Positions 17,484 through 48,082 of a stretch of 64,000 nt of DNA are shown here, piece by piece. Both the position numbers and the translations under genes were made by a program. Origin of the DNA: Candidatus Cybelea sp. (GTDB lineage: Bacteria > Acidobacteriota > Terriglobia > Acidiferrales > UBA7541); the NCBI GenBank assembly GCA_035510055.1, contig DATKHV010000099.1, forward strand, positions 29,826-93,825, read 5' to 3'. The notes beneath the pieces are model-generated. The model did no database searches. It saw only the letters and a program-made list of their open reading frames with translations, and was not told the DNA's origin. Each line of letters begins with the position of its first letter. Positions within the stretch are counted from its first letter, which is position 1.

Positions 17484-17593
17484 TCGGTGTGCCGGTGAGT
17501 CTGCTTGCTTATATCGTGTGCGGCGCGCGGAAGTCAACGGGCCGCGTTGTCTTTTTCGCGTCGCGTCGCAAAAAGGCAAACGCATTCTATTTA

Positions 17594-17608
17594 CAGCAGA
17601 CTCTGCTG
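17594..17608. promoter_or_regulatory. 7-bp perfect inverted repeat in the divergent cytochrome/nuoEF-like intergenic region
   Basis: cagcaga-c-tctgctg at 17594-17608, between the divergent starts at 17483 (-) and 17667/17700 (+). Candidate operator. No known consensus recognised. Confidence 0.3.
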
Positions 17609-17666
17609 CCAGTAGTATGCAGAGGACTCAGCACGCCACTTTGCGCCGCGCATCCTTTCCGAGAAA

Positions 17667-19418
17667 TTGCCCGGCGCCTTTCGCGCGAGACGGGGCGCCG
17701 TGATCTTCGACGACCTTCGGGCCATTCAGCTTCGCTACGGCTTCCTGCCCAAAGCGGAACTCCAAGGGCTTTCACAACGCACCCAGACCCCGCTCTATCA
17801 AATCCACGGCGTGGCAAGTTTCTATCCACATTTTCATCTCGTGCCACCGTCCAAGGTGGAGATTCGCGTTTGCGCCGATATGAGCTGCCATCTGAACGGC
17901 GCTTGTGAATTGCGTGCCGATCTTGAACGACGATTTGCGAGTGCTCAGCCGGATGATGTGCAGATTCGTGATGTCTCTTGCCTCGGCCGTTGCGATCACG
18001 CTCCGGCGATTTCCATCAACGACCAGATCTTCACGGACGTGACCGCGGTGCATGCCGAGCAGCTCGCGCGCAGCGCCATGCGCGGAGATGACATTCACGA
18101 GCCACATCCCGCGCAGGCACGCATCGTTTGCAAAGCTGATCCCTATGGGGAAGATGAAAAGTACGGCGTGGTGCGCAAGCTGGTTCAATCCAAAAATTGG
18201 GGCGGCGTTCTCGCACAACTCAAAGCCGCTGAACTGAAAGGCCTGGGCGGCGCGGGATTTCCCACGAGCGTGAAGTGGGAGCTCGTCCGCAAACAGCCCG
18301 ATCCGGTGAAATACATCGTGTGCAACGCCGACGAAAGCGAGCCGGGGACCATCAAGGACCGCTTCATCCTGACCAATTTGCCGCACTTGGTGGTCGAAGG
18401 GATGATCATCGCGGGCCTGGTTACGGGGGCGAAACGCGGCATCCTCTATATCCGGCACGAATATCATCTTCAAGAAGAGATTCTTGGCGAAGAGATTCGG
18501 CGGTGTTATCGCTCGGGGCTTCTTGGAAAAAAAATCCTCGGCAGCGATTTCGACTGCGACCTGGAAGTTTTTGTGAGTCCAGGCGGCTACATCTGCGGAG
18601 AAGAAAGCGCGCTGATCGAAGCCCTTGAAGGACATCGCGCGGAGCCGAGGAATAAGCCGCCTTTCCCCGGGCAAATCGGGCTGTGGCAAAAGCCTACGGT
18701 CATTAACAACGTGGAGACGTTTATTAACGTTCCGCAAATTCTCGCTCGCGGGAGCGAATGGTTTGTGGCCCAAGGCACCGGCGGCTCGCACGGATTGAAA
18801 TTCGTGGGGGTGAGCGGGCAGGTTGAACGGCCGGGCATTTTCGAAGTCGCCATGGGCGTGCCCGTGCGTGAGGTCATTTTCGATCACGCGGGCGGGGTTC
18901 GTGGAGGCCGTCAACTGAAAGCTTTTGCGCCCTCCGGGCCATCGTCCGGCTATCTTCCCGCTTCGATGGTCGATGTGCGTTTGGATTTCAAGGCGCTGGC
19001 CGAAGCTGGCTCGATGCTGGGCTCCGGCGCCATTGTCGTCTGCGATGACACCACTTGCATGCTGGACATGGCACTGAACGCGGTGCGCTTCTACCGCAAC
19101 GAATCCTGCGGAAAATGTGTACCGTGCAGGGTTGGGTCACAAAAAGTGGCGGACCTGCTGGCGCGCTGGACGCAAGGCGGCTTGAGCGAATCGCAATATC
19201 GTGCCGATCTCGGGCTGCTTGACGAACTTTCGCAAGCCCTGAGCCTCACTTCCATTTGCGGCCTCGGCCAGATCCTGCCTGCGCCGATTCAGTCGGTGCT
19301 GAAGCATTTTCGCACCGAAATCGATGCGCACGTTTTAAAGGGCCAGTGTCCCAGCGGCATTTGCTTTACCGCGGCATCGCGCGCCGGGGAAGCCCAGCGA
19401 GTTGGGATTCGCCCCTAG
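17667..19418 (+). CDS. Fused NuoE-like [2Fe-2S] / NuoF-like FMN- and NADH-binding subunit (diaphorase-type, HoxF/FdsB-like)
   Basis: 583-aa ORF with a TTG start in the track. An in-frame GTG at 17700 is an alternative start. The NuoE-type cysteines are CADMSCHLNG ... CLGRCDHAP. The NuoF FMN/NADH region is GLGGAGFPTSVKWE, and the N3 cluster motif is ESCGKCVPCRVG. Confidence 0.9.
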   Translation: MPGAFRARRGAVIFDDLRAIQLRYGFLPKAELQGLSQRTQTPLYQIHGVASFYPHFHLVPPSKVEIRVCADMSCHLNGACELRADLERRFASAQPDDVQIRDVSCLGRCDHAPAISINDQIFTDVTAVHAEQLARSAMRGDDIHEPHPAQARIVCKADPYGEDEKYGVVRKLVQSKNWGGVLAQLKAAELKGLGGAGFPTSVKWELVRKQPDPVKYIVCNADESEPGTIKDRFILTNLPHLVVEGMIIAGLVTGAKRGILYIRHEYHLQEEILGEEIRRCYRSGLLGKKILGSDFDCDLEVFVSPGGYICGEESALIEALEGHRAEPRNKPPFPGQIGLWQKPTVINNVETFINVPQILARGSEWFVAQGTGGSHGLKFVGVSGQVERPGIFEVAMGVPVREVIFDHAGGVRGGRQLKAFAPSGPSSGYLPASMVDVRLDFKALAEAGSMLGSGAIVVCDDTTCMLDMALNAVRFYRNESCGKCVPCRVGSQKVADLLARWTQGGLSESQYRADLGLLDELSQALSLTSICGLGQILPAPIQSVLKHFRTEIDAHVLKGQCPSGICFTAASRAGEAQRVGIRP

Positions 19419-19419
19419 T

Positions 19420-21591
19420 ATGACGACTGCCGGCACACCTGCGGGGTTCGTGGACATCACACTGGACGGAAAACCCGTGCGAGTGCCGGCGGGGACGAGC
19501 GTGTTTGACGCCGCGCGCATGAATGGGATCAACATTCCTACGCTTTGCCACCTGCAGAGCCAGACGCCCGTGGGCGTCTGCCGCTTGTGTGTTGTGGACA
19601 CCGGGGCGCGCGTTTTGTCTGCATCCTGCGTCCGCCCGGTCGAGCCGGGCATGAAAGTCGTCAGCAATTCAGAAAAAGTACTGGCAGCGCGCAAAACCTT
19701 GCTGGAACTGATGATGAGCGATCATCCTTCCCCTTGCGCGCGCCAGCAGAATTCCGGCGACTGCGAATTGGAGACACTCGCAAAGGCGGCGGGCGCTTTG
19801 CCGCCACGCTTTAGAAAACACACCGTCGCGCGCGGTAAAGATGATTCTTCCCTGGCTATCGCCGTGGATCACGACGCTTGCATTCTCTGTGACAGGTGCA
19901 TCCGCGGCTGCGATGAGATCAAAGACAATTTCGTCCTCGGCCGCATGGGCAAAGGTTATTCCGCGGGGATTGCGTTCGATCTCAATTCGCCGATGGGCGA
20001 TTCCACTTGCATCTCGTGCGGGGAGTGCATGGTTTCTTGTCCGACGGGCGCACTCACCAACAAGAGTGTCGTCGGCACGGCGATTGCGTCGGGTCCGGAC
20101 GCGCAAGGATTAGAAGCCGAGGATCTTTTGCAGATTCCCGTTTTCAAGGGGGTATCCGGGACATTTCTCGCGCTGAATCGCGGGGCGATCGTCAAACGGC
20201 GGTTCAGCAAAGGCGAAATCATCTGCCGCGAAGGACAATTCGGTTCGACAGCGTTCTACATTGTCGAAGGCCGGGCCAAGGTTTCGATTTCCACTCCGAT
20301 CGCGCACGTCAAGACGCAGGGCGGCGCAAAAGGATTTTTCAAGCGGCTGACCAGCACACTCGTCGCGCGAGAAGAAGATAGGCGCGAAGAGGAAGCGCGC
20401 GACAGGACGATTCCGATCGATGCACCGGTGGATCTTGCTTACGGCAACCCTGTCGCTGAACTTGAACCGGGCGACCTCTTCGGCGAAATGACTTGCATGA
20501 ATTTTTATCCGCGTTCGGCGACGGTCATCGCCGGCTCGGAGGTTGTGGCGTTTGAGATGCTGCGCAATGTTCTCGACATCATGTTGAAGAACAAGACTTT
20601 CAGAGCGCAACTGGACCAGACTTATCGCCGCCGGGCTCTCGAGAATCACCTTCGCGGCGTGCCTATGTTCGCGGATCTTTCGCAGGAATTCATCGCGCAC
20701 CTGAAGGAAAGCGTGGAGTTGCAGCGCTTCGGGCCCGGCCAGGTGATCGTTCAGCAGGGCGCGGTGGCGGACAGTTTCTATCTGGTGCGAATCGGTTTCG
20801 TGAAAGTTTCGGAAAATTATCCAGGTGGCGAACTGGTGCTGGCCTATCTTTCGCGCGGCGATTATTTCGGGGAAATAGGGCTTCTCGGCGGCGGTGTTCG
20901 CACGGCGACGTGCACGGCTCTCGATCACGTTGAGCTCGTGCGAATCTCCGGCGAGGATTTCCGCGACATGGTTGCGCGGTTTCCCAGCGTGAGAAGCGGC
21001 CTGGAAGCCGCGGCCGCCGAGCGGCGCGCCGCAAACCAGCAGCGCTTGCAGATGCTACACGACGTTCCCATCGATCAATTTCTCTCGCAAGGATTGATGG
21101 AAGCGCAGAGTCTGCTGATTCTGGATTTGCAGAATTGCACGCGTTGTGACGCTTGCGTGAATGCTTGCGCCGACGCGCACGAAGGGGTCACGCGCTTGGT
21201 GCGCGATGGATTGCGCTTCGATCAATATCTGGTGGCCACCAGTTGCCGGCAGTGCCGCGATCCGCTGTGCATGGTGGGCTGCCCGGTCGGCGCGATCCGC
21301 AGGAGAAACTCGCTGGAAGTCATCATTGAGGATTGGTGCATTGGCTGCGGGCTTTGCGCGCAAAATTGTCCTTACGGCAATATCAATTTGCATCCGTTTG
21401 AAGTGCTGGTGGACGATCCCGACCGCGTTGGACGAAAAAAAGCTGTCATTAAGCAAAAGGCGACCTCTTGCGATCTTTGCACGCACTTGCAAGAGCCGAG
21501 CTGCGTTTACGCTTGCCCGCACGACGCCGCGCATCGTGTTGACCCACGCACATTTTTCGCCGCCATGCTGGAACGGGCCCCATCGAAATGA
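19420..21591 (+). CDS. Fe-S protein: NuoG/HoxU-like N-terminus + two cyclic-nucleotide-binding domains + DmsB/NrfC-like 4Fe-4S ferredoxin domain
   Basis: ATG at 19420, one nt after the upstream stop. N-terminal 2Fe-2S motif CHLQSQTPVGVCRLCVV, then HPSPCARQQNSGDCELE, CILCDRCIRGC and CISCGECMVSCP. Two cNMP-binding-like domains follow (GEIICREGQFGSTAFYIVEGRAKV...GDLFGEM, and GQVIVQQGAVADSFYLVRIGFVKV...GDYFGEIGLL...RTATCTA). C-terminal clusters are CTRCDACVNAC, CRQCRDPLCMVGCP, CIGCGLCAQNCP and CDLCTH...CVYACP. Confidence 0.85.
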   Translation: MTTAGTPAGFVDITLDGKPVRVPAGTSVFDAARMNGINIPTLCHLQSQTPVGVCRLCVVDTGARVLSASCVRPVEPGMKVVSNSEKVLAARKTLLELMMSDHPSPCARQQNSGDCELETLAKAAGALPPRFRKHTVARGKDDSSLAIAVDHDACILCDRCIRGCDEIKDNFVLGRMGKGYSAGIAFDLNSPMGDSTCISCGECMVSCPTGALTNKSVVGTAIASGPDAQGLEAEDLLQIPVFKGVSGTFLALNRGAIVKRRFSKGEIICREGQFGSTAFYIVEGRAKVSISTPIAHVKTQGGAKGFFKRLTSTLVAREEDRREEEARDRTIPIDAPVDLAYGNPVAELEPGDLFGEMTCMNFYPRSATVIAGSEVVAFEMLRNVLDIMLKNKTFRAQLDQTYRRRALENHLRGVPMFADLSQEFIAHLKESVELQRFGPGQVIVQQGAVADSFYLVRIGFVKVSENYPGGELVLAYLSRGDYFGEIGLLGGGVRTATCTALDHVELVRISGEDFRDMVARFPSVRSGLEAAAAERRAANQQRLQMLHDVPIDQFLSQGLMEAQSLLILDLQNCTRCDACVNACADAHEGVTRLVRDGLRFDQYLVATSCRQCRDPLCMVGCPVGAIRRRNSLEVIIEDWCIGCGLCAQNCPYGNINLHPFEVLVDDPDRVGRKKAVIKQKATSCDLCTHLQEPSCVYACPHDAAHRVDPRTFFAAMLERAPSK

Positions 21592-22568
21592 GAATGGACA
21601 AAACGCAACTCCGCTGGGCTTGCGCTTCGCTTGGAATCTTGACGATTTGTGGCGTCGTGTACGGTGCTTACGCGCTCGAATCTCCGCTGGGTCCGCTTGG
21701 CGGCAGTACTATCGGAGTCGCTTTCGGCATCATGGGCTTCGGCTTCATGTTATTTGCGGCGCTTTTGGGCGCGCGGAAACGCGTTCCTACGTGGCGCGTG
21801 GGACGCGCGCAAGCGTGGATGCGTGGGCACCTGTGGCTCGGCTTTCTGGCCCTGCCGATGATTCTTTTTCACGGCGGATTTCATTTCGGGGGGACGCTTA
21901 CGAGCGTCTTGATGTGGCTGCTGATGATTACGGTGTTCAGCGGCGTATTTGGCGCGGTGCTGCAACATTACATTCCGCGCCTGATGACCGTGGACGTGCC
22001 GCTCGAAACGATTTACGACGAGATCGGTCGCGTCCGAACGCTGCTACGCGAGGAAGCCGATCGCGCGATGGAATCACTCTGCGGGAATTTGGGGCTGTCG
22101 AAACATTCGAACGAAGAAGGCCTTCGAGCGGGTGGGTTCACGGCGTTGCGGACAATCGCCGCTTCAGCGGTTCCGCTGCGCACTTCTGGGGCGGTTAGCG
22201 CGGGCGCGAGTGCGGGTGTTGCTGCGGCTGCCGAAATTAGTTTGCTGAGTGAAGAAGTGAGTGCGCGGCTCGGACGGTTTTACTTGAAGGAGATGCGTCC
22301 GTTTCTGGAGCAGCCGGGAAAACGCGGCCAGCGTCTGGGCGATAACGGGAAAGCGGGCAGCGCGTTCGCGGGGCTGCGCACACTATTGCCTGCCGCAGCG
22401 CACGCTACGCTTTTTGACCTTGAAGACATTTGTGACGAAGCGCGGCAGCTGGCACGTCAGGAACGTTTGCAGCACTGGCTGCATGGGTGGCTGCTGCTGC
22501 ACATCCCGCTTTCGCTGACATTGGTTTTGCTTGGCGCTGTACACGCGGTGATGGCTCTACACTATTAA
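21588..22568 (+). CDS. Integral membrane protein with conserved-looking His in TM helices (possible b-type heme membrane anchor)
   Basis: 326-aa ORF whose start overlaps the upstream stop (ATGA). It has four N-terminal hydrophobic helices, about 170 aa of soluble insert and one C-terminal helix. His residues lie in or next to the helices (RGHLWLGFLALPMILFHGGFHFGG, LQHYIP, HWLHGWLLLHIPLSL...GAVHAVMALHY). No family recognised. Confidence 0.6.
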   Translation: MRMDKTQLRWACASLGILTICGVVYGAYALESPLGPLGGSTIGVAFGIMGFGFMLFAALLGARKRVPTWRVGRAQAWMRGHLWLGFLALPMILFHGGFHFGGTLTSVLMWLLMITVFSGVFGAVLQHYIPRLMTVDVPLETIYDEIGRVRTLLREEADRAMESLCGNLGLSKHSNEEGLRAGGFTALRTIAASAVPLRTSGAVSAGASAGVAAAAEISLLSEEVSARLGRFYLKEMRPFLEQPGKRGQRLGDNGKAGSAFAGLRTLLPAAAHATLFDLEDICDEARQLARQERLQHWLHGWLLLHIPLSLTLVLLGAVHAVMALHY

Positions 22569-22582
22569 CACGAGAAAAAAAC

Positions 22583-24040
22583 GTGGCTCGCACCCGCACG
22601 ACTAAAAAACTGGCCCAGCGCATCGACCTCAACTATTTTAAGAAGCCGACGCCGCTGAAGCGCGCGAAATTCTGGCTTAGTCTCGTGCTGCCTTTGCTCG
22701 CAGTGATTTGGATTTCCTGGCGCAGCGTTTCTGATGATCCTCGCGTTTATTCAAGCGGCCGCATGAGCAAAGCACATGCGGTGCTGGAAAAGGATTGTGG
22801 TGCTTGCCACTTGCGAACCGCTGGAGCATTTTCCGCGAAAGCGGGCGACGCCGCTTGCCTCGACTGTCACGACGGCCCCCTTCATCATGCGGAACAGGCT
22901 TATGCCCCGAACTGCACGACTTGCCACATGGAACATCGTGGAAGAATCAGTTTAGTGGCCACAAGCAACGAAAGCTGCGGGCAGTGTCATGCGCGGCCGG
23001 TCACAAGATCCGGTAACAAGGCGCTCTGGGACCGCTTTGATAGTTTCGAACACGGCCACCCGGAGTTCACCCCCTTGCGAACCGTTGCAGGCATCGCGCC
23101 GAGCGATCCCGGCACGATCAAACTGAATCATGCCATCCATATGAAGCCCATTCGACGTCGGCCGAATGGGCCCAACGTTCAGCTCGAGTGTGGCAACTGC
23201 CACCGTCCGACATCTGCGGCCATGGACATGACCTACTCGGATGCGAAGTACCGCGCTGCAGCCGTCAGCTACAAAGATAGCGACGAGTATTTAGCTGGGC
23301 ACGCCGAAAGTCTGAAGCCTCCGCGTTCAGAAACCGGGCGCGAGTGGATGGCACCCGTGAAATTCGCGAATGCTTGCGCTGGCTGCCATTTGCTGACGTT
23401 TGACAAGCGCTTCGACTTTGGCGTTCCGCACGACAAGCCGGAGGTTATACGCGAATTTCTGGCGAGAACATTTCGTGAATACATTTCCGCGCACGCCAGC
23501 GAATTGCGCGTTCCGCGCGAGCCGAGCCGCGACCTTACGGGTAAGCCGGTGCCCCCGGAAGTTCGCACACTTACTCCCCCACAATGGGTGATGGAGCGTA
23601 CGGTGGAGGCAGAAGATCTGCTCTGGCGAAAAACCTGCAAGCAGTGTCACACCCTGATATCTCCCGCAAAAAGCCGGCGCGGAAAAACCGAACTATTGAG
23701 TGCCGGGGCGAGCGACGCGGACAAGCTCCCCGGCACCTCGGCTGGATTGCCAAACGTTGCGCAAGCGAACACCACATTGCGTTGGATGCCGCATGCGAAA
23801 TTTGATCACGGGGCGCATGAAGGATTTACTTGCGTGAGTTGTCACGCCCAAGCGCTGACCAGCACGGAGTCGAGCGACATCTTGCTGCCGGGGATGGCGA
23901 CTTGCAAAACGTGCCATGCGCCGGGGCCGGAGCATGCAGAGTCGCGCTGCTTCGAGTGCCATACGTATCACGATTGGTCGAGGCGGAAGGAAGTCACGCC
24001 AAAATTTACGTTGCCAGGACTTGCCACCGGCGGCCGCTGA
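22583..24040 (+). CDS. Membrane-anchored decaheme cytochrome c
   Basis: The track ORF starts at 22487, inside the previous gene. The GTG at 22583 (VARTRTTKKLAQ...) is preferred, 15 nt after the upstream stop. One N-terminal TM helix (FWLSLVLPLLAVIWISW). Ten CxxCH motifs: CGACH, CLDCH, CTTCH, CGQCH, CGNCH, CAGCH, CKQCH, CVSCH, CKTCH and CFECH. Confidence 0.85.
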   Translation: MARTRTTKKLAQRIDLNYFKKPTPLKRAKFWLSLVLPLLAVIWISWRSVSDDPRVYSSGRMSKAHAVLEKDCGACHLRTAGAFSAKAGDAACLDCHDGPLHHAEQAYAPNCTTCHMEHRGRISLVATSNESCGQCHARPVTRSGNKALWDRFDSFEHGHPEFTPLRTVAGIAPSDPGTIKLNHAIHMKPIRRRPNGPNVQLECGNCHRPTSAAMDMTYSDAKYRAAAVSYKDSDEYLAGHAESLKPPRSETGREWMAPVKFANACAGCHLLTFDKRFDFGVPHDKPEVIREFLARTFREYISAHASELRVPREPSRDLTGKPVPPEVRTLTPPQWVMERTVEAEDLLWRKTCKQCHTLISPAKSRRGKTELLSAGASDADKLPGTSAGLPNVAQANTTLRWMPHAKFDHGAHEGFTCVSCHAQALTSTESSDILLPGMATCKTCHAPGPEHAESRCFECHTYHDWSRRKEVTPKFTLPGLATGGR

Positions 24041-33756: not shown

Positions 33757-34743
33757 TTACAGGCCCAGGGCGTCCATTTTCGGCTTTTCGTAGATGTCAT
33801 CCTCCCCCGGGTACCGTAGACGGTCCTCAAAGCGCCCTGTCTCCTTTGCCAGGGCCCACACCAGGCTTTCTCCGGCGGGCACAATTTGCGACTGTCTGCC
33901 GAAGATGGGGTCTTCAAACGCGAGAGAAGCATCAATCCATTGCCACCCGGCGGCTTCGAAGGCCGACATGACTTCGCTCAGCAGGAAAGCGTTCAGAGGA
34001 TTGTAATGCATCAGCAGCGTGTGACGAATGTCGTGGCCAACAACGTCGAGAGAAAGTTGGCGATAGAACGCCGCCCGATCCAGGAGATGTGCGATTAAGT
34101 AATCGCCATAAGGAGCGACAGCAGCTTTTGCCTGCTTGCCGAGCCGGTCGACGAAGCGCTGGTTGACGTACCAGTCGGAAGCATCAATCGTAACGTGTCC
34201 GACACGGTAGCCGCGCTCCTTGAGCAAAGCGCGAAAGCGATCGCGCTTGTCCGCGGTGTCGCCTTCCTTCAGGAAGGGATAACGAAATAATGCCGTGCGG
34301 TTGTGATACGGCGCGATCACTTTTTCGTTTTTCAGAAAATCGGCGGCGAAATCCTCGTAACTCGTTTGCGCGCCGTAAAATTTGTGTGAGTAGGAATGAT
34401 TGCAGATGAGGTGGCCCGCTTGATCCCAGGCGGAGAGCAATTTGGCGCCGTCGGCATCAACCACGCGCATGCCGCAAACGAACAGGGCGGCGCGGACACC
34501 TTTGTCAGAAACCGCCTGCAAAATGCGGCGATTGGCTTCCGGCCATCGCAGGATGGAGCCGAGCGAGAGCGTCGGATCATCGAAGGTCGGGGCCAGTTGG
34601 GGCCGCGGGGAACTGCTCGCAGAAGTTTTCGGCGCCGGGCCTTGTGAAAGAGCAGAGGCTCCTAAGGCCGGCGGAAGCAGTTGAGAGCCAACGGCGACCG
34701 AAGCGGTTTTTATGGCCTGGGAGAGGAATTTGCGGCGTTTCAT
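33757..34743 (-). CDS. Tat-exported polysaccharide deacetylase (CE4)
   Basis: The track ORF runs to 35052 and overlaps the upstream gene. The ATG at 34743 gives MKRRKFLSQAIKTASVAVG (twin-arginine motif RRKFL), 10 nt after the upstream stop. CE4 motifs are PTFDDP and NHSYSH. Confidence 0.75.
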   Translation of the reverse strand: MKRRKFLSQAIKTASVAVGSQLLPPALGASALSQGPAPKTSASSSPRPQLAPTFDDPTLSLGSILRWPEANRRILQAVSDKGVRAALFVCGMRVVDADGAKLLSAWDQAGHLICNHSYSHKFYGAQTSYEDFAADFLKNEKVIAPYHNRTALFRYPFLKEGDTADKRDRFRALLKERGYRVGHVTIDASDWYVNQRFVDRLGKQAKAAVAPYGDYLIAHLLDRAAFYRQLSLDVVGHDIRHTLLMHYNPLNAFLLSEVMSAFEAAGWQWIDASLAFEDPIFGRQSQIVPAGESLVWALAKETGRFEDRLRYPGEDDIYEKPKMDALGL

Positions 34744-34753
34744 GGCGATGATC

Positions 34754-37700
34754 TCAGTAATAAGAATGCAACCAAGCCTGGATGCGCGAAAACAGGGAAG
34801 TGAGCGTCGAAGCAGAAGAGGAAACGGGCGTGGGGCGAGGTTTTTCAGCTCTCTCAACGGCCTCGTCAGTAACCGCGTAAAGCTGGCCGGTAGCCGAGTG
34901 GATGTACAAGCTGCGCATTTCATTGCGATTGAGCGGCCGAGCACCGCGGCGGCCGAACACGGCGAGCTGGTTGCCGGATTCATCGAGGGCGCGGTCTCGG
35001 TCGATGCCTTTCGAGATCGCCAGCGCCGGGCCGTGGGTGTGCGCCGTGGCAATCAGTTTTGGCGTGGGGCGCGGGCTGAATCCGGAAAAGTGCGCGGCGT
35101 CATCCCACGGCGAAACGATCTGCCAAATGCGCAGGCCATACACTCCGTCGGCTACAAACGCGAAAGCACTCCCCGCCACCATTCCGATTTTCACGTCGTA
35201 TGCGTCGTTCAACTGTCCGTTCCCGCCAAACATCTGGTCGTAAAGCGGCTTCTCTGGATTTTCAACGTCCACGACGGACACTCCAAATCTTCCGTTCGCG
35301 ACGTAGGCGTAGGTCCGCGCTACGTAAACATTTCTTGCATCTCCGAGCGAAACTCGTCCCGTCTCTGTCATCTTTGGATGCGCCAGATCCGTTACCTCCA
35401 GCGTCTTCAACCCGTAGCGGTCCACCACAAACGCATACCGGAACTGCACCGAAATCCCGCGCGGATCATCCAGGTCGGGGGCGCCGATGGTCGCGGTAAC
35501 TTTGGGCGCTAGGGGCTTATCGAGGTCGACGACGACGAGCGCTTTGTCGGTAAGGATGTAAGCAAATGTTCCGGCGATGGCGATACGGCGCGCGCCCGTG
35601 AGTGCTCCGCCTGGATTGAACACCAGGGCGCGCTTCAGGAAATTGTTGGCCGGATTGCCGTCCAAAAGCGTGCCTACGCCAGGACTTTTCGATTTCAGAT
35701 TGGGATCGCCAATGATGACCAGGCCTTCTTCTTTGTCGGCAACGTAAAGGAAGCCGTAGAGAAGATGAATGGGCTGCTCCTCGTTTTCCGGTAATTGCTG
35801 CCGCAAAGGATCGATCCCCAGGGTCGTTGGTGAGGCAACTGCCAGCGCATTTTTGGTGGGAACGTAGAAGCGTTGGCCGATGGGCGAGACCGGCGCGGTC
35901 GTGATTTTCTCAGAGAAGCTTTTGTTGTCGATGTTGGCGATGTCATAAACGCGCAGTCCGCCGCGCCCGAGAGCCGCGTAGGCGTATTCCCCGCGGGCTT
36001 GGATGTCGAGGACGTTGCCGGAATGTTCCGCGGCGGCGCTGAGTTCGCGGCCGTGCTGTAAGAATCTTTTGTAATTGTCGGGATACGCGATGCGCTGAAG
36101 GTCGCTGCCATAAATGGCTTCCGGCTCGTCGTGCTCGGCAACAGCGACAGCTTCCAATCCTTGCTTGCCGGTCGCGACGAAAACATATCGTCCTATGAAA
36201 TTCATGAAGTTGGTGCCTAGCAGCAAGAGCTGGGCCATCCATGCATTGTTGTCATTGTTTGCGGAAACGTGGCAATCGCTACATTGTTTGGTTTCTTTGG
36301 CGCGCACCGTATGTGGCACAAACGTCGAGAACGCCTGTCCGGACAAACCAGGAGCCGAAATCGTCTGCTGCGTGTAGTAGAGCCAATCACGATTAGCGTT
36401 TTGCGAACTCACCAGCACGGCGCACGAAGAGCGCGCGGGTGCGATGCGATGGCCGGTGACCGTGCCATCCACTCCCAGCATGTAGATGTCGTCCCGCAGA
36501 ACCTGAAAGTTGTAGCTGGTGTAATTTTTCGTGAGCAAGCCTTCGTTGTGCAGCATGGGCTTGCGCGCGTTGGCGGTCATTTGCAGATGGCAGCCGAAGC
36601 AGGTAGGCGTCCACGAAGTGTGGCAGGAGTAGCAAGTCATGCTGTTATTGGCGTGTGCCAAAGGAGCGTCGTCGCTCGGCATTTGCCAAGACACACTGCC
36701 ATCCTTGTTCATCAATTTCGCCCGCCGAGATTTCTCGTTGAAATGCAGGTTGCCGGGCGTGATGCTGTCGATGGTCTGAACGATTTCCCACTCTTTGTTT
36801 TCTTCCGACATGGAACGCTGAAAAATCTTGTTGTCCCGCCACTCGAACCGCCGCAATCCCCACGGTGTGCGTAGCGCGTCCAGGTGCCGGCCGCCTTCCG
36901 GTGCTGTCGGGCCGGACGTTACTAAAGCGGCTTTTTTGCGAATCGTGCCGTGGCAATCGATGCAGTCGATTTCGACTGCCGCGCGTGGTTCGCCGTAAAT
37001 TTTCCCATCGCCGTGATTGTCCTGCGCGAAGTGGCAATCGTTGCACTGCATTCCTTTTTCTAGATGAATGTCCGCCAGGTGTACGGCTTTGCCGAAGCGC
37101 TCCGGATCATCGAAGGCGATCTGCTTTCCATCCTTATCCAGCCAATTCCCTTTGCGGTCGTGATTGAACACGGCGCGGAAAATCCAGCCGTGCCCGTGAA
37201 AATCGGCGAACTGCGTAGTCTTCAACTGCTTGTTGAATTCAGGGCTGCCCACACTTTCCAGGAATTTCTCGTCGCTCCAGAGGCCGCGAACGGCCGCTCC
37301 CTCCGGATTGCGTTCGAAAGATTGATAGCGCTGCTCTTCAGTCGGATTGCGCTGCTCCTTCGGATACATCATGTCGCCATCGATTTCGTTGTCCCACCAG
37401 GTGAGACCGAAATACGTCGTAACCATGTTTGTGCCCGGATGAATGTGGCAGATCATGCACTGGCTCGAAGGAATGGAGCGCGTCAAAATGTGCTTGATGG
37501 GATGGCCGGACTCGTTCTTGCGAATCGTCGGATCGCAAGAAGCACTGAAACCGGAGTGGCCAAAGCGCGCGTACGCCCCCGAATGCGCGGGATCGCGATC
37601 ATTTGCGTAAATAACATGGCACGCGGTGCATCCGCTGCCGCGATAGTCGCCGGGATGATCGTTCGTGCCGGGAAGCGACAGGACGGGGTCGAGCAAGCGT

Positions 37701-38596
37701 GTTTTTTGCAGGCCGAGAAAAACGGGATCGGTGCGCAGTCCGGTGCCGAAGCCGCGTTCGCTCAGCTTGTCATCCGGCTTCCCCGGCTCCTCCTCGCCAT
37801 TGGGATTGCCGATTTCCCCTTTCTTGGTGCCGCCGCGTTCAAAAACGCGCAAGACATTGCCGGGTTGCGAACTTTCCCAGCGAAAGAGCGGATCGAGTTC
37901 GGGAACTGCGCCCTTAGCGCGGGTTTCCTCCGTCGTGGGGGGAGGAAAAGTCTTGATCGATTGCGGCAAGCCGTCGCGGCTGTAGCTTTCGCCGAAGCGC
38001 GTATTTTTCGCCGGATAGCCGCCGTTGTTGTAGAGCGCAGCGCCCCACAGCATTCCCGCGTGGGTCATCATGCTGGTCGAAACGGCGCGTGTTTCGGAAG
38101 CGTGGCATCCGTCGACACCGCAAGTTTCTGTAGCGATGCGCAGGTCTCCGGGATTGACGAATTTTATGTACTCGGCGGATTCCTTCAGCCACTTCGTATA
38201 AGTACGTTCCGGAATTGCCGAGCGATTCTTAAACGAACGATCGCGCGGCTGAACGTGGGCTTTTTCCTTCGCGGAACTGTATTGCGGAGAATTCGGCGCC
38301 GCTCCGGAGGCCACCGAAACTGCGGAGTTGCCACCATGGCAATCCGTGCAGCCCAGAGGAACGGTTTTCGTGGCATGCATGGTGGGCTCGTCAGTGGAAG
38401 TGTGGCAAGAGATGCAGCCCGAGGATTTGCGGTCTGCTTCTTCTTGCGATTGCCCGCGGAAGGGCGCTGACTCTTGTGTCGCGCGCGCTGGCGGTTCCGA
38501 ACTTGCATGCAGAGCAAAGAAAAAAGATAGCGCCGTGACCAAGAGAGCGCAGAGCGTTCCGAGAGAAGAAGAAACCGATTGGTGTTTCCTGTTCAT
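34754..38596 (-). CDS. Giant secreted multiheme cytochrome c (9 CxxCH + 1 CxxxxCH) fused to C-terminal LVIVD-repeat beta-propeller region
   Basis: The ATG at 38596 (MNRKHQSVSSSLGTLCALLVTALSFFFALHASS) is preferred over the track start at 38710. Heme motifs are CISCH, CTDCH, CGVDGCH, CTACH, CMICH, CNDCH, CIDCH, CYSCH, CFGCH and CSDCH. The C-terminal 450 aa carry LVIVD-like repeats (GLRVYDIANI, GLVIIGDPN, ALVVVDLDKP, LKTLEVTDLAHP, GVSVVDVENPEKP, GLRIWQIVSP). Confidence 0.85.
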   Translation of the reverse strand: MNRKHQSVSSSLGTLCALLVTALSFFFALHASSEPPARATQESAPFRGQSQEEADRKSSGCISCHTSTDEPTMHATKTVPLGCTDCHGGNSAVSVASGAAPNSPQYSSAKEKAHVQPRDRSFKNRSAIPERTYTKWLKESAEYIKFVNPGDLRIATETCGVDGCHASETRAVSTSMMTHAGMLWGAALYNNGGYPAKNTRFGESYSRDGLPQSIKTFPPPTTEETRAKGAVPELDPLFRWESSQPGNVLRVFERGGTKKGEIGNPNGEEEPGKPDDKLSERGFGTGLRTDPVFLGLQKTRLLDPVLSLPGTNDHPGDYRGSGCTACHVIYANDRDPAHSGAYARFGHSGFSASCDPTIRKNESGHPIKHILTRSIPSSQCMICHIHPGTNMVTTYFGLTWWDNEIDGDMMYPKEQRNPTEEQRYQSFERNPEGAAVRGLWSDEKFLESVGSPEFNKQLKTTQFADFHGHGWIFRAVFNHDRKGNWLDKDGKQIAFDDPERFGKAVHLADIHLEKGMQCNDCHFAQDNHGDGKIYGEPRAAVEIDCIDCHGTIRKKAALVTSGPTAPEGGRHLDALRTPWGLRRFEWRDNKIFQRSMSEENKEWEIVQTIDSITPGNLHFNEKSRRAKLMNKDGSVSWQMPSDDAPLAHANNSMTCYSCHTSWTPTCFGCHLQMTANARKPMLHNEGLLTKNYTSYNFQVLRDDIYMLGVDGTVTGHRIAPARSSCAVLVSSQNANRDWLYYTQQTISAPGLSGQAFSTFVPHTVRAKETKQCSDCHVSANNDNNAWMAQLLLLGTNFMNFIGRYVFVATGKQGLEAVAVAEHDEPEAIYGSDLQRIAYPDNYKRFLQHGRELSAAAEHSGNVLDIQARGEYAYAALGRGGLRVYDIANIDNKSFSEKITTAPVSPIGQRFYVPTKNALAVASPTTLGIDPLRQQLPENEEQPIHLLYGFLYVADKEEGLVIIGDPNLKSKSPGVGTLLDGNPANNFLKRALVFNPGGALTGARRIAIAGTFAYILTDKALVVVDLDKPLAPKVTATIGAPDLDDPRGISVQFRYAFVVDRYGLKTLEVTDLAHPKMTETGRVSLGDARNVYVARTYAYVANGRFGVSVVDVENPEKPLYDQMFGGNGQLNDAYDVKIGMVAGSAFAFVADGVYGLRIWQIVSPWDDAAHFSGFSPRPTPKLIATAHTHGPALAISKGIDRDRALDESGNQLAVFGRRGARPLNRNEMRSLYIHSATGQLYAVTDEAVERAEKPRPTPVSSSASTLTSLFSRIQAWLHSYY

Positions 38597-38925
38597 GGCG
38601 AATAGACCGCGTTGGCAAGTTTTAGGACCGAAAATCCCACCAACTCCGCGGCTTCCGACAATCGGCGGTCGCCGCAGATGAAGGTTCTCCTTGACGGACG
38701 TTGTTCGCACCAGATCAAGGACGCTGCGAGTTCGAAGCTATCAGTCGCCCGCAAGGAATATTTATCCACAGATGGCGCCGCCAATTCACGAATCTGTTCG
38801 CCGGGAAGAATTTCTCTCCAGCCCAGGCTTAGTAATCGCAGACGAGCCACAGCGCCTTTCTTCTCGAGGTCGCTAATCTCATTCTTGCGGTGCAGGCGGC
38901 AAATCGCGCTATGAACTTCTATCAA
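38593..38925 (-). pseudogene. N-terminally truncated PIN-domain (VapC-like) ORF
   Basis: 110-aa ORF with a TTG start. An in-frame TAG lies 4 codons upstream. The sequence matches the middle and C-terminal parts of VapC-type PIN domains (EVHSAI...LRATDSFELAASLIW...FICGDRRLSEAAELVGFSV). The first roughly 35 aa, including the N-terminal acidic residue, are missing, and no antitoxin ORF is adjacent. Confidence 0.45.
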
Positions 38926-38975
38926 GCTTCCCCACTAAACTACCGGAGCGAAAGTCTATCCTGGTATCTCCAAGT

Positions 38976-41219
38976 TCAGAAAGTAAACTTCACCGATCCG
39001 AAAAACGAGAAGAGCGTGCGGCTGGTGTAGATGTCTTTGAAACCCTGGCCAGGTTGCAGCGCTGAAGTGCCGCCGCTGAGGACGATGTTTTCGGTCAAGG
39101 GCGGGCGGTACTCCACACCGATGCCGAAGTCTTCGCCAATGGTGTGATGAATGGGCGATTGGAAAAGCAGAAATTCCAGCGGTTCGGTGCGCTCGAAGCG
39201 CAGAAAGTTGAAATTGACAAATCCCCGCAACTTGGGAGTGATCTCCAGGTCGGCCCCCGCATTCGCGAGAAAAATTCCAGGATTTACGAAATTAGCCTGG
39301 CCTTCTTCTTTGCTCGCGCGAAGCGAAGGAATCAAGCTGCCCGGCGTGGTGAGCAGAATGCCTGAGCCGAGCAGGCGAAGGCCTTCGCGATTCCAGAAAC
39401 TGAACAAGCCGCCGGCAAAATTCGGAAGGTCATCGATGGAATCAAATCCGCGTGCGCGCCCGTCGCGGGGATGGGGGTCGCCCGAAGTGTAGAAAGCCGA
39501 AATACGATAGCGGATCCAATCTTTGTCGTACGAAATTTCAGCGGCAGCCATCTGCGCGTTGATTGTGACGCGGCGGCCGGCGATGGGATTGAAGGTGTCC
39601 TCACCAATGGCTTGGTAGAAAGCGTGCGTAAGATTGATTTTGCGGATGTGTCCGCTGCCGAGCCAGCCGAAATAGCCGGCACGAATGCCATGAAGGATCG
39701 CGCCGCCGTTGGGGTTCTGGTTGATGACATTTCCAATCGGCGAAGGTCGCACCAGAAAGCCGTTGTCATCGTAATGGAGGCTGGGTTCGTCTTTGTTCCA
39801 CGCGGCGGCGAATTCCGCCGTGTAGCCTGGAAAAAAGAAGTCCTGGAGATAAACGTTGCCGAGAAGAACCTGCTGGTGGCGGCGGACAAAGGTGTTGAGT
39901 CCGCTGTTGGTATTTTTTTCGAGCAAATGGAAATAGGCAAGATTGTATTCGATGCGATCGCTGTGGAGGTTGCCGAAAATGCGCAGGGCGGGTTGTTCAT
40001 CCACAAAAAGAAACCCGCGAAAGTCGGCATTGAATTGCTGAATGCCGGCGCGCGCGGAAACGAAATCATAATTGGGGCCGAGGTCGTGGAGCTTCACTTC
40101 CACGAAGGCTTCCTGTAAGCCCACATGATCGTCGAAACGGTTGGTGCCGCTGCGCGGATCGGGGCCGACGATGCCCAGTTCGCGAACATGCAAATCGTTC
40201 AAGCTCAGCTCCGGAGTAATTCGGATGCGCCAATCGACGGGCTTGAAAGCTGCGTCGCCATGAAATAAGTCAAAAGCAAAGCGCTCTGTTTGATCGACGA
40301 AAGCTTGTTCGCCTTTGCCAAAAAAATCCGAACTGCCTGGGCGCGCACTGCTCGCATTGCTTGGTGCCGGAACGCGTCGGCCGTCGAAAAAAGTTTCAGA
40401 AGAAGCAGTGACGTTCAGAAAAACCTGCTGCCCGAGCAGTCCCGGCCAAATAGGTTCGTCTCCTTTCAAGCGATTGTGATGGAACGGATCGTACCAATGG
40501 GACTTTGCATAAACGTACTCGCCCTTTTGCGGATAGCGGCGGTAGTCAGGTTGTTCGAGCTCCCAGCGGTTGGGAACGGTATTGTAAACATCGGCGACTG
40601 GCGGAAGCGTGTCTGAGGAAATATTTTCGATGTAATGCGGGTCGGAATCGAGTCGATGGCGAAATTCCCGATAAGTCCCCGAAGAAGGTTGCGCTTCGCC
40701 AGAAGGAGCGGGGCCAAGTTCTGGCAAGCGCGGCAAGCGTGAGCGCTCTTCCATAGCTGCGAAATTCAGAAGAAAAATCTCCAGCGTTACAACTTCGTTT
40801 TGCTCCAGGACCAGATCCGTAAGAACAAACGGGCCGTAATCCTTGGCGGCGACGCGAAGCTGGTAACGGCCAGGCAGCAACGGAAAAACTCGGAAGACTC
40901 CTTCATCAGAAGTCGTCGCACGGAAGACTTGCCCGGATTGCAAGTGTTGCAGCGTAAGCAGGGCCGCTGCAACCGGGCGCGTTTCTCCGGGCACGCTTCG
41001 GTCGTGCACCACGCCATCAAGCGCTGCGCTGGTCTGGGCTTGCTGACGCGGAATGCGCTGTGGGGGGCCCTGCTCGGCGGATTTCTTTGTGGAGTCTTGC
41101 GTGTTGGGCGGCGGTTGATCTTGCGGGTTGGCACCGGTGGTCGCAGCGGCGGAAAGAGCCGAAATACAGCAAACCGCGCCGAACGCGCGACGATATTCCC
41201 GCGGAGAACAAAAGATCAT
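38976..41219 (-). CDS. Outer-membrane beta-barrel protein with N-terminal CarboxypepD_reg-like domain
   Basis: 747-aa ORF. It has a signal-like N-terminus, a low-complexity Q/P linker and a carboxypeptidase-regulatory-like fold region (RATTSDEGVFRVFPLLPGRYQLRVAAKDYGP). A long region of alternating beta-strand-like sequence ends in the OMP-type terminus FGSVKFTF. No TonB-box or plug recognised. Confidence 0.7.
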   Translation of the reverse strand: MIFCSPREYRRAFGAVCCISALSAAATTGANPQDQPPPNTQDSTKKSAEQGPPQRIPRQQAQTSAALDGVVHDRSVPGETRPVAAALLTLQHLQSGQVFRATTSDEGVFRVFPLLPGRYQLRVAAKDYGPFVLTDLVLEQNEVVTLEIFLLNFAAMEERSRLPRLPELGPAPSGEAQPSSGTYREFRHRLDSDPHYIENISSDTLPPVADVYNTVPNRWELEQPDYRRYPQKGEYVYAKSHWYDPFHHNRLKGDEPIWPGLLGQQVFLNVTASSETFFDGRRVPAPSNASSARPGSSDFFGKGEQAFVDQTERFAFDLFHGDAAFKPVDWRIRITPELSLNDLHVRELGIVGPDPRSGTNRFDDHVGLQEAFVEVKLHDLGPNYDFVSARAGIQQFNADFRGFLFVDEQPALRIFGNLHSDRIEYNLAYFHLLEKNTNSGLNTFVRRHQQVLLGNVYLQDFFFPGYTAEFAAAWNKDEPSLHYDDNGFLVRPSPIGNVINQNPNGGAILHGIRAGYFGWLGSGHIRKINLTHAFYQAIGEDTFNPIAGRRVTINAQMAAAEISYDKDWIRYRISAFYTSGDPHPRDGRARGFDSIDDLPNFAGGLFSFWNREGLRLLGSGILLTTPGSLIPSLRASKEEGQANFVNPGIFLANAGADLEITPKLRGFVNFNFLRFERTEPLEFLLFQSPIHHTIGEDFGIGVEYRPPLTENIVLSGGTSALQPGQGFKDIYTSRTLFSFFGSVKFTF

Positions 41220-41428: not shown

Positions 41429-43057
41429 ATGGAAACGACTCTCACACTGCGTAGGCCAATGGAATCCCGGCGCGCCGAGCGGCACCAAAAAAAAACACTG
41501 GCGCTTGGCGTTTTCCTTGCTTTGGGAATCGCGTTAGCGCTCGTGATGATCATTGCCGGTTGTGGAGGCGGAAGTAGCGCACCCGTTGTAGCACCGCCAG
41601 CTGCGGCCGTCGAAGCATTGCAAGCCGCCGATGTAGAGAACATCGTGCAAGCAGCGGTAAATTCCGTGAATGTGGATATGGCAGTTGCTATCGTCGACCG
41701 CGCTGGATTTGTGCTGGGCGTATTTCGAACTCAAAACGCGCCGGCCACAGCCACTGGAAATTTTGGACAAATCCAAGATGCAAACGAAGTCGCTGTGGCG
41801 CTGGCGCGAACAGGTGCCTTCTTCAGTAACGATCAAGCGCCGCTGTCATCGCGAACCGTGCGCTTCATCAGCGGAATCCATTTTCCGCCTGGCGTGATGA
41901 ACCAACCGCCAGCGGATTTGTATGGGATCGAGAACACCAATCGTGGTTGCACGCTGATCAATGACGCTGCATTTCAGAGCAAGATTCCACCTTCGCTGGC
42001 CTTGAGCGGAGGATTTGGACTCGGAGTGCTTACCGGCAAAGCCGACGTGAATGACTCGAACGCGGCGGCGGTGAATCCCGGCGGCGTGCCGATTTTTTAC
42101 AAGAACATCGTGCTTGGCGGAATCGGCGTGGTGACGGCCTCGAGTAATTTGAATGTTGCGGAGTACGCGGCGTTCGCCGGCGCGACGACGGCGCGCAGCG
42201 GCGCCAACGACACGTTTGGGCCAACGCCCGCGGCTCCGGGAGTGGTTTTTATCGGAGGCCTTGCGCTGCCGTTCGTAAGCCAGACGTCGCGGCCCGCGGG
42301 TTTTTCCGCGGGACCCGTCGCGGGCGTGGGTAGCTATTTTGTGGCGGCGACAAACAGCCAAGGGCAACCGCCCGAGGGCGATTTGATTCCGCCAGCGCCT
42401 GGACCGCTTGGCGGTTTGAGCGCCGCCGATGTGAAGCAAGTTTTGGATAACGCCGAAGCAATGGCGAACACCACGCGAGCCGCGATTCGATTGCCCCCTG
42501 GATCCAAAGCTCGCATGGTGATGGCGGTGGCCGACCTGGACGGAACCATCATCGGCTTGCGACGAATGCAGGATTCCACCGTTTTCAGCATTGACGTCGC
42601 CGTGTCCAAGGCGCGCAATATGGTGTACTTCAACAGCGCCGCTCGAACGGCGACGGATTTGAACGGCGTGCCCATGGGAACGGCAGTAACAAACCGCACC
42701 ATTAGTTTTGGCGCACAGCCTCTTTATCCTCCGGGAATTGATGGTTCGAGTGCTGGGCCATTTTTTAATCTCTATACCATGGACCTGGCAAATCCTTGCA
42801 CGCAAGGATTTCAGGGCGGCGCGGCGAACGCGAACAAGAGCGGAATTGTTTTCTTCCCGGGAAGCGCGGGCTTATTCAGAAACGGCGCTCTGGTAGCCGG
42901 GCTGGGTGTGAGCGGTGATGGAGTGGACGAGGACGACTACGTAACCAATGGCGGCACCGCCGGGTTCGAGGCGCCTACGAACATTCGGGCCGACCAAATC
43001 ATGGACCAAGGCGTACGGTTGCCCTATTTCAAGTTTCCGAGAAATCCCACCAACTAG
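41429..43057 (+). CDS. Lipoprotein with two GlcG/HbpS-like (DUF336) domains
   Basis: 542-aa ORF, with an alternative ATG at 41459. Lipobox is VMIIAGCGG. Two DUF336-like blocks are present: ADVENIVQAAVNSVNVDMAVAIVDRAGFVLGVFRT, and AADVKQVLDNAEAMAN...RMVMAVADLDGTIIGLRRMQDSTVFSIDVAVSKARNMVYF. Confidence 0.65.
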   Translation: METTLTLRRPMESRRAERHQKKTLALGVFLALGIALALVMIIAGCGGGSSAPVVAPPAAAVEALQAADVENIVQAAVNSVNVDMAVAIVDRAGFVLGVFRTQNAPATATGNFGQIQDANEVAVALARTGAFFSNDQAPLSSRTVRFISGIHFPPGVMNQPPADLYGIENTNRGCTLINDAAFQSKIPPSLALSGGFGLGVLTGKADVNDSNAAAVNPGGVPIFYKNIVLGGIGVVTASSNLNVAEYAAFAGATTARSGANDTFGPTPAAPGVVFIGGLALPFVSQTSRPAGFSAGPVAGVGSYFVAATNSQGQPPEGDLIPPAPGPLGGLSAADVKQVLDNAEAMANTTRAAIRLPPGSKARMVMAVADLDGTIIGLRRMQDSTVFSIDVAVSKARNMVYFNSAARTATDLNGVPMGTAVTNRTISFGAQPLYPPGIDGSSAGPFFNLYTMDLANPCTQGFQGGAANANKSGIVFFPGSAGLFRNGALVAGLGVSGDGVDEDDYVTNGGTAGFEAPTNIRADQIMDQGVRLPYFKFPRNPTN

Positions 43058-47068: not shown

Positions 47069-48082
47069 TTACTTGCGTAGCCGGCGGTCGTGAGTATGTT
47101 CGGAATGGCCATTGGCGTCCAGCCAGGCCAGAAGACTGCGAATGCTGCCGTGCGCCAACGCAATGCTCGAATCAGCGGCACCGTAGTAGAGATTGATGGT
47201 GTCCCCATCTGATGCCACGGTATAGCCGCAAGGAAACACGACGTCCTGCACGTCGCCATGACGCTCATATTCCGCTTCCGGCGCGAACATCCAAGAATCC
47301 CCCCGAATCAGGCATTTTTCCGGCTGCACAAGGTCGAACAGAGCCAGCCCCAACCGGTAGATGGAACTGGACGGTGTGCGTCGAACGCCGTGGTAAATCA
47401 TCAACCAGCCGCGCGACGTTTCAATCGGCGGCGGTGACATTCCAATTTTGTTGGCATCCCACCAGGCGCCTCGGCGGGCTTCCAGCATGAGCTTGTGATT
47501 GCCCCAATGCCGCAGATCGGGCGAGTACGAAATCCAGATGTGAGCTCCGAGCGGCGTCATGGGCCGATGAATCAGAGCCCAAGAGCCGTTAATCCTTCTG
47601 GGTAAAAGGGCCGCATCTTTGTCGTCCGGCGACATTACGACACCGAGTCTCTCGAATGTCCGAAAATCTTTCGTGAGCGCTAGGGACACTCCAGGACCGC
47701 CACGCGAATAGGAAGTGTAAGCCACGGCATATTGCTGGAGTTCCGGCATATACGTGATGCGCGGATCTTCGACGCCCCATAACTCCTCGGGGAACCGCTG
47801 AACGTCTGGGATGAATGTCGGTTCGCGATCGATCTGCCACCCATCGACGCCGTTTGCCGAACGCGCCACGCACAAATGAGAGAGGCCACGGCGATCTTCC
47901 ACGCGACAAAGGAGAAGAGTGGAGCCGTCGGGCAGCAACGTAGCGCCCGCATTAAAAACGCTGTTCATGGAATACGGCCAATCTTTTCCGGTAAGGATCG
48001 GATTGCTTGGATGCCGGTGAAATAGCGTCTCGTATTTATACATGACCGGACGGTCGAAACTTTTTTCAGCAAGAATGCTCAT
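47069..48082 (-). CDS. GH130-family glycoside phosphorylase/hydrolase-like protein
   Basis: 337-aa ORF. The N-terminus FHRHPSNPILTGKDWPYSMNSVFNAGATLLPDGSTLLLCRVEDRRG and the later WGVEDPRITY match my memory of GH130 (beta-mannoside phosphorylase family). It overlaps the upstream GT stop by 4 nt. Confidence 0.75.
   Translation of the reverse strand: MSILAEKSFDRPVMYKYETLFHRHPSNPILTGKDWPYSMNSVFNAGATLLPDGSTLLLCRVEDRRGLSHLCVARSANGVDGWQIDREPTFIPDVQRFPEELWGVEDPRITYMPELQQYAVAYTSYSRGGPGVSLALTKDFRTFERLGVVMSPDDKDAALLPRRINGSWALIHRPMTPLGAHIWISYSPDLRHWGNHKLMLEARRGAWWDANKIGMSPPPIETSRGWLMIYHGVRRTPSSSIYRLGLALFDLVQPEKCLIRGDSWMFAPEAEYERHGDVQDVVFPCGYTVASDGDTINLYYGAADSSIALAHGSIRSLLAWLDANGHSEHTHDRRLRK

Follow-up and report, generated by a model that had tools for sequence, protein, structure and literature searches.

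The question raised by this locus is whether the gene of an outer-membrane beta-barrel and that of a very large decahaem cytochrome together encode a route for electrons across the outer membrane. Both genes lie in a stretch of 64,000 nucleotides (hereafter the window) of contig DATKHV010000099.1, from an assembly labelled Candidatus Cybelea sp. (GCA_035510055.1). A preliminary description had read them as parts of a four-gene operon that may encode an architecturally different conduit, in which the cytochrome would be secreted or inserted through the barrel and a deacetylase might remodel a surface polysaccharide. Judged from sequence, the gene pair probably represents a new kind of unit for electron transfer at the outer membrane. 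We put at roughly 0.55 the probability that it is a two-gene redox module of the outer membrane, of an architecturally different porin-cytochrome type, with a proposed relay across that membrane. The idea of a different conduit therefore stands as the best reading, with a dedicated barrel-cytochrome pair at its core, whereas the role of the deacetylase and the passage of the whole cytochrome through the barrel do not.

All four genes are on the minus strand, and reading of the open reading frames (ORFs) confirms the junctions first described: in gene order, 50 nt separate the first two genes, the second and third overlap by 4 nt (ATGA), and 10 nt precede the fourth. The outer-membrane barrel protein (747 aa, C-terminus SVKFTF) is encoded at 38976..41219. 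The 5'-truncated remnant of a vapC-like toxin gene follows (38593..38925, 110 aa), then the gene for the Sec-exported decahaem c-type cytochrome with a C-terminal LVIVD beta-propeller (34754..38596, ATG at 38596, 1280 aa), and finally that for a CE4 polysaccharide deacetylase with a twin-arginine translocation (Tat) signal (33757..34743, ATG at 34743, 328 aa). Checks of the sequence and with hidden Markov models (HMMs) recovered all ten haem motifs, the LVIVD repeat, the motifs of the CE4 protein, and its RRKFL signal. A scan for promoters and terminators returned no more than chance would give.

Which of these genes belong together is answered by synteny. The proteins of the window were placed by tblastn on 84 loci, 80 of which are species-level genome loci found via the cytochrome. 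With the cytochrome as bait, the barrel gene is directly upstream on the same strand in 76 of the 80; the remaining four have less than 1.1 kb of upstream DNA, too little to show a barrel gene. With the barrel as bait, the cytochrome gene is directly downstream in all 70 metagenome loci that have at least 600 nt of downstream sequence. The pairing holds from both search directions and persists down to about 40% barrel identity, and the two genes are usually spaced by 13-60 nt. The conserved unit is thus a dedicated pair of barrel and cytochrome only, and the co-conservation on which the preliminary description had asked for a check is upheld.

In soil metagenomes, relatives of both large proteins at 80-90% identity number in the thousands; some are labelled Candidatus Acidoferrum, and full-length cytochrome-propeller proteins reach down to 40% identity among the 1.8 billion cluster representatives searched. 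When one genome per species was scanned, at least 596 species genomes held a relative. All are metagenome-assembled genomes (MAGs). Most belong to the Acidobacteriota (Terriglobia, Blastocatellia/Pyrinomonadaceae, Thermoanaerobaculia, Bryobacterales, and Chloracidobacterium), and a few are labelled Methylomirabilia, deltaproteobacterium, or Gemmatales. The paired-gene synteny spans Terriglobia, Blastocatellia, Thermoanaerobaculia, and Bryobacterales, together with MAGs carrying these three other labels. Some MAG labels conflict: Candidatus Cybelea, Dormiibacterota, Dongiaceae, and Heliomicrobium appear on contigs that are 75-100% identical to Acidoferrum-type sequences, except for the Heliomicrobium-labelled locus L046, which is 53% identical. 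The conflicts concern proteins HUC55693/55695/55697, which are identical to those of the window, and loci L011, L024, and L046. Because they are probably binning errors, the spread beyond Acidobacteriota is to be read with care.

The cytochrome carries nine CXXCH motifs and one CX4CH motif (C159-H165). With ten conserved motifs and an export signal, it has the sequence features of a c-type multihaem cytochrome. The haem domain (residues 61-776; 36269..38416, minus strand) also contains 12 further histidines, and all 20 haem cysteines, the 10 proximal histidines, and these 12 are conserved across 76 aligned orthologues (54-86% identity). Since the extra histidines are conserved, bis-His ligation is possible for every haem, and the ten haems are probably bis-His ligated; the protein contains no CXXCK motif. 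The first three haems fall within about 105 residues (about 35 residues per haem), a density like that of MtrA or NrfB, and the remaining haems are far apart. Searched against the PDB, a profile of the cytochrome gave marginal, single haem-pair matches to NrfB and NrfA (E 0.005-0.01), in which haems 1-2 correspond to NrfB and haems 6-7 to haems 4-5 of NrfA. The ExtM/ExtN family was also considered; the NCBIfam scores are far below the cut-offs, so no family was assigned. Long plus-strand ORFs run antisense to the cytochrome gene (34712-38470; e.g., 37064-38470, 468 aa). They have no homologue-based support and are an expected by-product of coding sequence with about 57% G+C.

The C-terminal region of the cytochrome is, by its repeats, an LVIVD beta-propeller. 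Six to seven repeats can be seen by eye at about residues 860-1240 (34877..36019, minus strand), and Pfam LVIVD (PF08309) matches residues 1085-1117 with 64.1 bits against a cut-off of 20.2. The same match is precomputed in nearly all homologues of the cytochrome. Since the propeller has no conserved His or Cys among the 76 orthologues, a copper- or haem-binding catalytic propeller is unlikely. The cytochrome of the window has a Sec-type signal and no lipobox, and its orthologues carry hydrophobic N-terminal signals. We found no description of an LVIVD-multihaem fusion in the literature searched, and this absence is no proof of novelty.

The barrel protein begins with a Sec-type signal and, in its N-terminal part, a CarboxypepD_reg beta-sandwich; a conserved linker of about 100 aa leads to a predicted 18-stranded beta-barrel ending in F. 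The periplasmic, Ig-like CarboxypepD_reg domain (residues 80-148; 40776..40982, minus strand) is the sole Pfam match of the 747-aa protein (PF13620, E 8e-11). It is found in 13 of 21 aligned barrel orthologues, and several lack it. The barrel domain proper (residues 266-747; 38979..40424, minus strand), delimited by the DSSP strands of an AlphaFold2 model, is kept in all 21 of these diverse proteins, and the terminal residue is F or Y in all barrel orthologues. After residue 160, no Pfam, NCBIfam, or PDB sequence match was obtained, even with a profile of the 21 orthologues, and the orthologues themselves gave no Pfam match for the barrel part at E <= 0.1. By these searches, the barrel is a protein of a new family with no curated-family membership. 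The preliminary description had allowed for an unrelated porin; no nutrient-porin family is matched by sequence.

The AlphaFold2 model was built on 92 sequences of 42-87% identity (49 close homologues alone gave a predicted local distance difference test score, pLDDT, of 37). It is of moderate confidence (pLDDT 72.7; predicted template modelling score 0.62) and shows 18 long strands at residues 266-746, along with the N-terminal beta-sandwich and the linker. The strands alternate in hydrophobicity and present lipid-facing residues, as in a membrane barrel. The lumen-facing residues show no net positive charge, by a crude inward/outward count that carries little weight. In a Foldseek search of the PDB, the model ranks the 18-strand alginate exporter AlgE first (E 2.7e-15 to 5e-13; TM-score 0.61-0.72 by target length), followed by chitoporin, OprB, OccK/OprD, and general porins. 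The 50 best matches do not include MtrB; together with the predicted strand number and the lack of an HMM match, this disfavours an MtrB/PioB-type barrel. A TonB-dependent receptor was tried and rejected: PF13620 is the only domain matched, with no plug or TonB_dep_Rec, the predicted strands number 18 against 22, and such a receptor ranks 48th in Foldseek (TM-score 0.22-0.24).

A link from the barrel to electron transfer is provided by four independent loci (L053, L055, L063, and L067), in which the N-terminal domain is swapped for a tetrahaem domain. The replacement has four CXXCH motifs and matches class III cytochrome c at E 3e-8, which gives cytochrome c3-barrel fusions with four N-terminal haem motifs (L053:7803-9941, L055:1754-3871, L063:5419-7725, and L067:6800-9130). 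Because four lineages fuse such a domain to the barrel, and a nutrient porin would have no obvious use for one, the barrel protein is tied to electron transfer. In L053 and L063, a free-standing tetrahaem paralogue is also encoded just after the large cytochrome.

How might the pair work? In the favoured reading, barrel and cytochrome would form one outer-membrane complex. Periplasmic multihaem cytochromes, which in some lineages appear fused to the barrel, would exchange electrons at the N-terminal domain of the barrel and with the large cytochrome, and in many genomes an NAD(P)H-linked Fe-S/b-haem/decahaem complex of the inner membrane may feed them. Ten, probably bis-His, haems would relay the electrons. 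The barrel would be the outer-membrane passage in one of two ways: a slender part of the cytochrome that bears haems sits in the lumen, or a small redox partner enters from outside. According to the model, the lumen would have room for no more than a slender segment; the candidate is the NrfB-like N-terminal stretch of three haems, by analogy with the presumed mode of Cyc2. The propeller would serve as a docking or scaffold domain and not as a catalytic one. Because the predicted 18-strand barrel is too narrow, it is unlikely to secrete or sheathe the whole cytochrome. The preliminary proposal that the cytochrome is secreted or inserted whole through the barrel thus loses its footing, since a pore of AlgE/OprD size could hardly take 1240 folded, haem-loaded residues in the way that the larger MtrB barrel takes up MtrA.

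Comparison with known systems places the porin-cytochrome complexes MtrAB(C), PioAB, and MtoAB of Shewanella, Rhodopseudomonas, and Sideroxydans among the closest. In these, too, the barrel gene adjoins the gene for a decahaem c-type cytochrome, and periplasmic and inner-membrane multihaem partners are encoded nearby. The components differ. The barrel of the window matches neither Pfam MtrB_PioB nor NCBIfam OMP_MtrB_PioB, and its predicted 18 strands make it smaller than the MtrB barrel, which has about 26 (PDB 6R2Q). It thus shares with MtrB/PioB a co-conserved multihaem cytochrome gene, but neither the family HMM match nor the width to sheathe an MtrA. The cytochrome, at 1280 aa with a fused propeller, contrasts with the compact MtrA of about 330 aa, and there is no MtrC-type lipoprotein here. 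Cyc2 of iron oxidizers, compared by architecture, is a small barrel of 16-18 strands with a periplasmic N-terminal haem domain, an arrangement that recurs in the orthologues of L053, L055, L063, and L067. However, the N-terminal domain in the window is a haem-free CarboxypepD_reg domain, and the barrel protein lacks any CXXCH. The fused orthologues carry four haems against the one of Cyc2, and a separate giant cytochrome is always present.

The closest structural match of the modelled barrel, the 18-strand fold of AlgE (PDB 3RBH, 4AFK), is similarly remote in other respects. Identity is about 10%, Pfam Alginate_exp is not matched, no alg genes are present, and the lumen is not clearly electropositive (by the same crude count); the window protein also has its extra N-terminal domain and conserved linker. 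The neighbours of the barrel are cytochromes, an HbpS-like protein, and housekeeping genes, with no alg or exopolysaccharide biosynthesis context. The likeness of the cytochrome to NrfA/NrfB is limited to weak single haem pairs, and it differs in having no CXXCK and in its quite different size and architecture. By membership tests, the pair is outside the MtrB/PioB, Pcc, Cyc2, AlgE, and TonB-receptor families. A recent preprint (Fiorito et al. 2026; 10.64898/2026.05.27.727921) describes 'EET1' clusters of porin, NHL propeller, and cytochrome, along with Mtr-like clusters, in peat Acidobacteriota. The EET1 clusters, which consist of different genes, were independently proposed as extracellular electron transfer machinery (10.64898/2026.05.27.727921). 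They have the phylum in common with the window, as well as the logic of combining a barrel in the outer membrane with a beta-propeller and a multihaem cytochrome within one conserved cluster. EET1 has these as three separate genes, with a porin that is MtrB-like in structure, a 6-bladed NHL/DUF5128 propeller, and small, haem-dense cytochromes, whereas the window has an LVIVD-type propeller fused to the cytochrome and an AlgE-like barrel.

Several observations weigh against an electron conduit. With 18 predicted strands, the barrel is far narrower than MtrB, and its likeness is to a polymer exporter (AlgE) and to porins with specific substrates. Haem density in the cytochrome is low (0.78 motifs per 100 aa), and the protein is unusually conserved for a surface cytochrome, with 54-86% identity across classes over its full length. 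These features would suit an enzyme no less than a conduit, and conservation over the whole length is more in keeping with a specific complex or an enzyme than with a fast-evolving reductase at the surface. All relatives found come from MAGs or metagenomes, and many of the host lineages are described as aerobic heterotrophs, in which mineral respiration is not expected. The main rival, which we regard as possible if rather doubtful, takes up some of these points. It sees in the cytochrome a periplasmic multihaem oxidoreductase with its substrate site at a haem or in the propeller, and in the barrel a dedicated channel for a soluble substrate, with no protein-borne electrons crossing the outer membrane. 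Candidate substrates are metal ions or chelates, oxyanions of sulfur or nitrogen, and quinone-like compounds. The nearest folds of the barrel are indeed 18-strand substrate-specific channels (AlgE, chitoporin, OprB, OccK/OprD), and an enzyme would suit the weak NrfA/NrfB haem-pair and ExtM/ExtN similarities, the high conservation that includes the propeller, and the low haem density; the conserved Lys 197, 298, and 627 and several Tyr could be unusual ligands. However, CXXCK is missing and the conserved histidines suffice for bis-His ligation at all ten haems, the propeller offers neither conserved His or Cys nor a match to a cofactor family, and a substrate channel has no evident need for the tetrahaem domain fused in four lineages.

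The strict pairing of barrel and cytochrome would also suit a device by which the barrel secretes or anchors the cytochrome-propeller at the cell surface, where the propeller contacts minerals or polymers. We consider this improbable. A cytochrome with a Sec signal and no lipobox would need another anchor, and LVIVD repeats were first described in cell-surface proteins (PMC2447325). Nevertheless, the predicted 18-strand barrel cannot pass a folded haem protein of 130 kDa, and no type II secretion genes were seen beside the pair. Moreover, c-type cytochromes fold and receive their haem in the periplasm. Very improbable, and rejected on the synteny data, is an exopolysaccharide export and modification pair of barrel and CE4 deacetylase, resembling PgaA/PgaB or AlgE, with the cytochrome merely lying between them. 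AlgE is the best fold match of the barrel, the deacetylase has its five catalytic motifs and an export signal, and the genes are tightly spaced, but 62 of 70 genome loci and 30 of 44 metagenome loci lack the deacetylase gene, whereas the pairing of barrel and cytochrome does not vary. Nor does the vicinity of the pair include a synthase, TPR, or co-polymerase gene; a glycosyltransferase gene 7 kb away (48079-50460) is not conserved with the pair, and the crude count gives the lumen no net positive charge.

The genes around the pair add to the redox context. A lipoprotein gene at 41429..43057 on the plus strand is divergent from the barrel gene and encodes 542 aa with the lipobox IAGC. It is HbpS/GlcG-like (Pfam PF03928, E 1.9e-16) and is named 'heme-binding protein' by NCBI. 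Of 60 genome loci, 33 have a divergent HbpS-like lipoprotein gene within 1.5 kb upstream of the pair, as do 51 of 53 metagenome loci, making it a frequent third partner that is co-conserved with the pair in most loci of Terriglobia. In Pyrinomonadaceae, it is the first gene of an operon that also encodes three multihaem cytochromes of the c7/c3 type (e.g., L062:1918-7288). More generally, multihaem cytochrome genes, including c7-type cytochrome operons, surround the pair in many lineages.

About 10 kb from the pair, a cluster of five genes on mixed strands occupies 16125..24040. A c554-like multihaem cytochrome is encoded on the minus strand (16125-17585), and four plus-strand genes (17667-24040) encode a NuoE/F-like NAD(P)H module, a NuoG-like Fe-S protein with three cyclic-nucleotide-binding (cNMP) domains, a His-rich membrane protein with four transmembrane segments (326 aa, no family match), and a decahaem cytochrome anchored by a transmembrane segment. 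Of 54 long genome loci, at least 30 have homologues of the cluster no more than 10 kb from the pair, and in many Terriglobia these adjoin it directly. Twelve long loci, including those of Methylomirabilia and deltaproteobacterial MAGs, have all four plus-strand genes. From its gene content, the cluster looks like a quinone-independent exporter of electrons from NAD(P)H to the periplasm at the inner membrane, and its co-localization suggests that it could feed the outer-membrane pair.

Taken to its full length, this arrangement would amount to a previously unrecognized, envelope-spanning electron pathway of soil Acidobacteriota and a few other phyla that bypasses the quinone pool, an extension that we offer tentatively and think unlikely as a whole. 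Electrons would pass from cytoplasmic NAD(P)H through the NuoEF/NuoG-like, cyclic-nucleotide-binding Fe-S module to the four-transmembrane protein, a putative b-haem protein, and then to the membrane-anchored decahaem cytochrome. Periplasmic c7/c3 cytochromes and the HbpS-like haem lipoprotein would hand them on to the AlgE-type barrel, housing part of the decahaem-propeller cytochrome, and so to the outside. Such a pathway would represent a third structural solution for electron transfer across the Gram-negative outer membrane, besides Mtr/Pcc and Cyc2.

The pair matters for its distribution as well as its architecture. Acidobacteriota are among the most abundant soil bacteria, and Candidatus Acidoferrum takes its name from a presumed role in iron cycling (PMC7980381). 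The pair is widespread, with its species-level genomes joined by thousands of metagenome contigs, and highly conserved, and neither of its proteins is in a curated family. If it is an electron conduit, it would provide a molecular marker for extracellular redox activity involving iron, manganese, or humic matter in soils and peat. An AlgE-sized barrel would then have been shown able to serve electron transfer, and the cytochrome-propeller fusion would join the known architectures. If it is instead a periplasmic enzyme with its own channel, the pair would point to a widespread, unidentified redox reaction of soil bacteria.

The window operon has, by comparison with its relatives, recently gained two passengers, a decayed vapC toxin gene and the gene of the Tat-exported CE4 deacetylase. 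The deacetylase matches Pfam PF01522 (Polysacc_deac_1) at E 4e-15, scoring 56 bits where the cut-off is 23; all five catalytic motifs (TFDD, HSYSH, RYPF, DASDW, and LLMH) can be read in the translation, and the N-terminus is MKRRKFLS. However, just 8 of 70 genome loci, and 14 of 44 from metagenomes, have its gene directly downstream of the cytochrome gene, and these are close relatives throughout, with a cytochrome at least 76% identical to that of the window. In some close relatives, the cytochrome gene is followed directly by a HAD gene, with no CE4 gene between. By this distribution, the CE4 gene is a recent addition to the operon outside the conserved module, and its proposed membership is withdrawn.

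The 110-aa ORF, which entered the gap between barrel and cytochrome genes as a lineage-specific insertion, had been called a PIN fragment. It has no match in Pfam, NCBIfam, PDB, or plasmids, and it is absent from all 84 loci first examined. At exactly the same site, loci L090 and L112 have a complete Phd/YefM antitoxin gene and a gene for a 151-aa toxin (L090:3732-4548). The ORF is 83% identical to residues 42-151 of the L090 toxin; the first 41 residues are missing from the window copy, as is the antitoxin gene that L090 retains. NCBI lists the identical protein (HUC55695.1) as a toxin of the VapC family. Given the L090 match and this name, the ORF is a 5'-truncated remnant of an inserted phd/vapC pair. 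The PIN HMM matches neither the ORF nor its 151-aa full-length relative. The ORF is insertion debris rather than part of the module. The gap between the barrel and cytochrome genes (38593-38975 in the window) is an insertion hot spot, and Blastocatellia loci have a PD-(D/E)XK gene (PF13366) in it (e.g., L062:9528-9905). Downstream of the operon, a DUF2961 gene (31349-32509, minus strand) lies between the HAD and DJ-1/PfpI genes of the window; because the close relatives L001-L004 lack it at that position, it is read as a local insertion.

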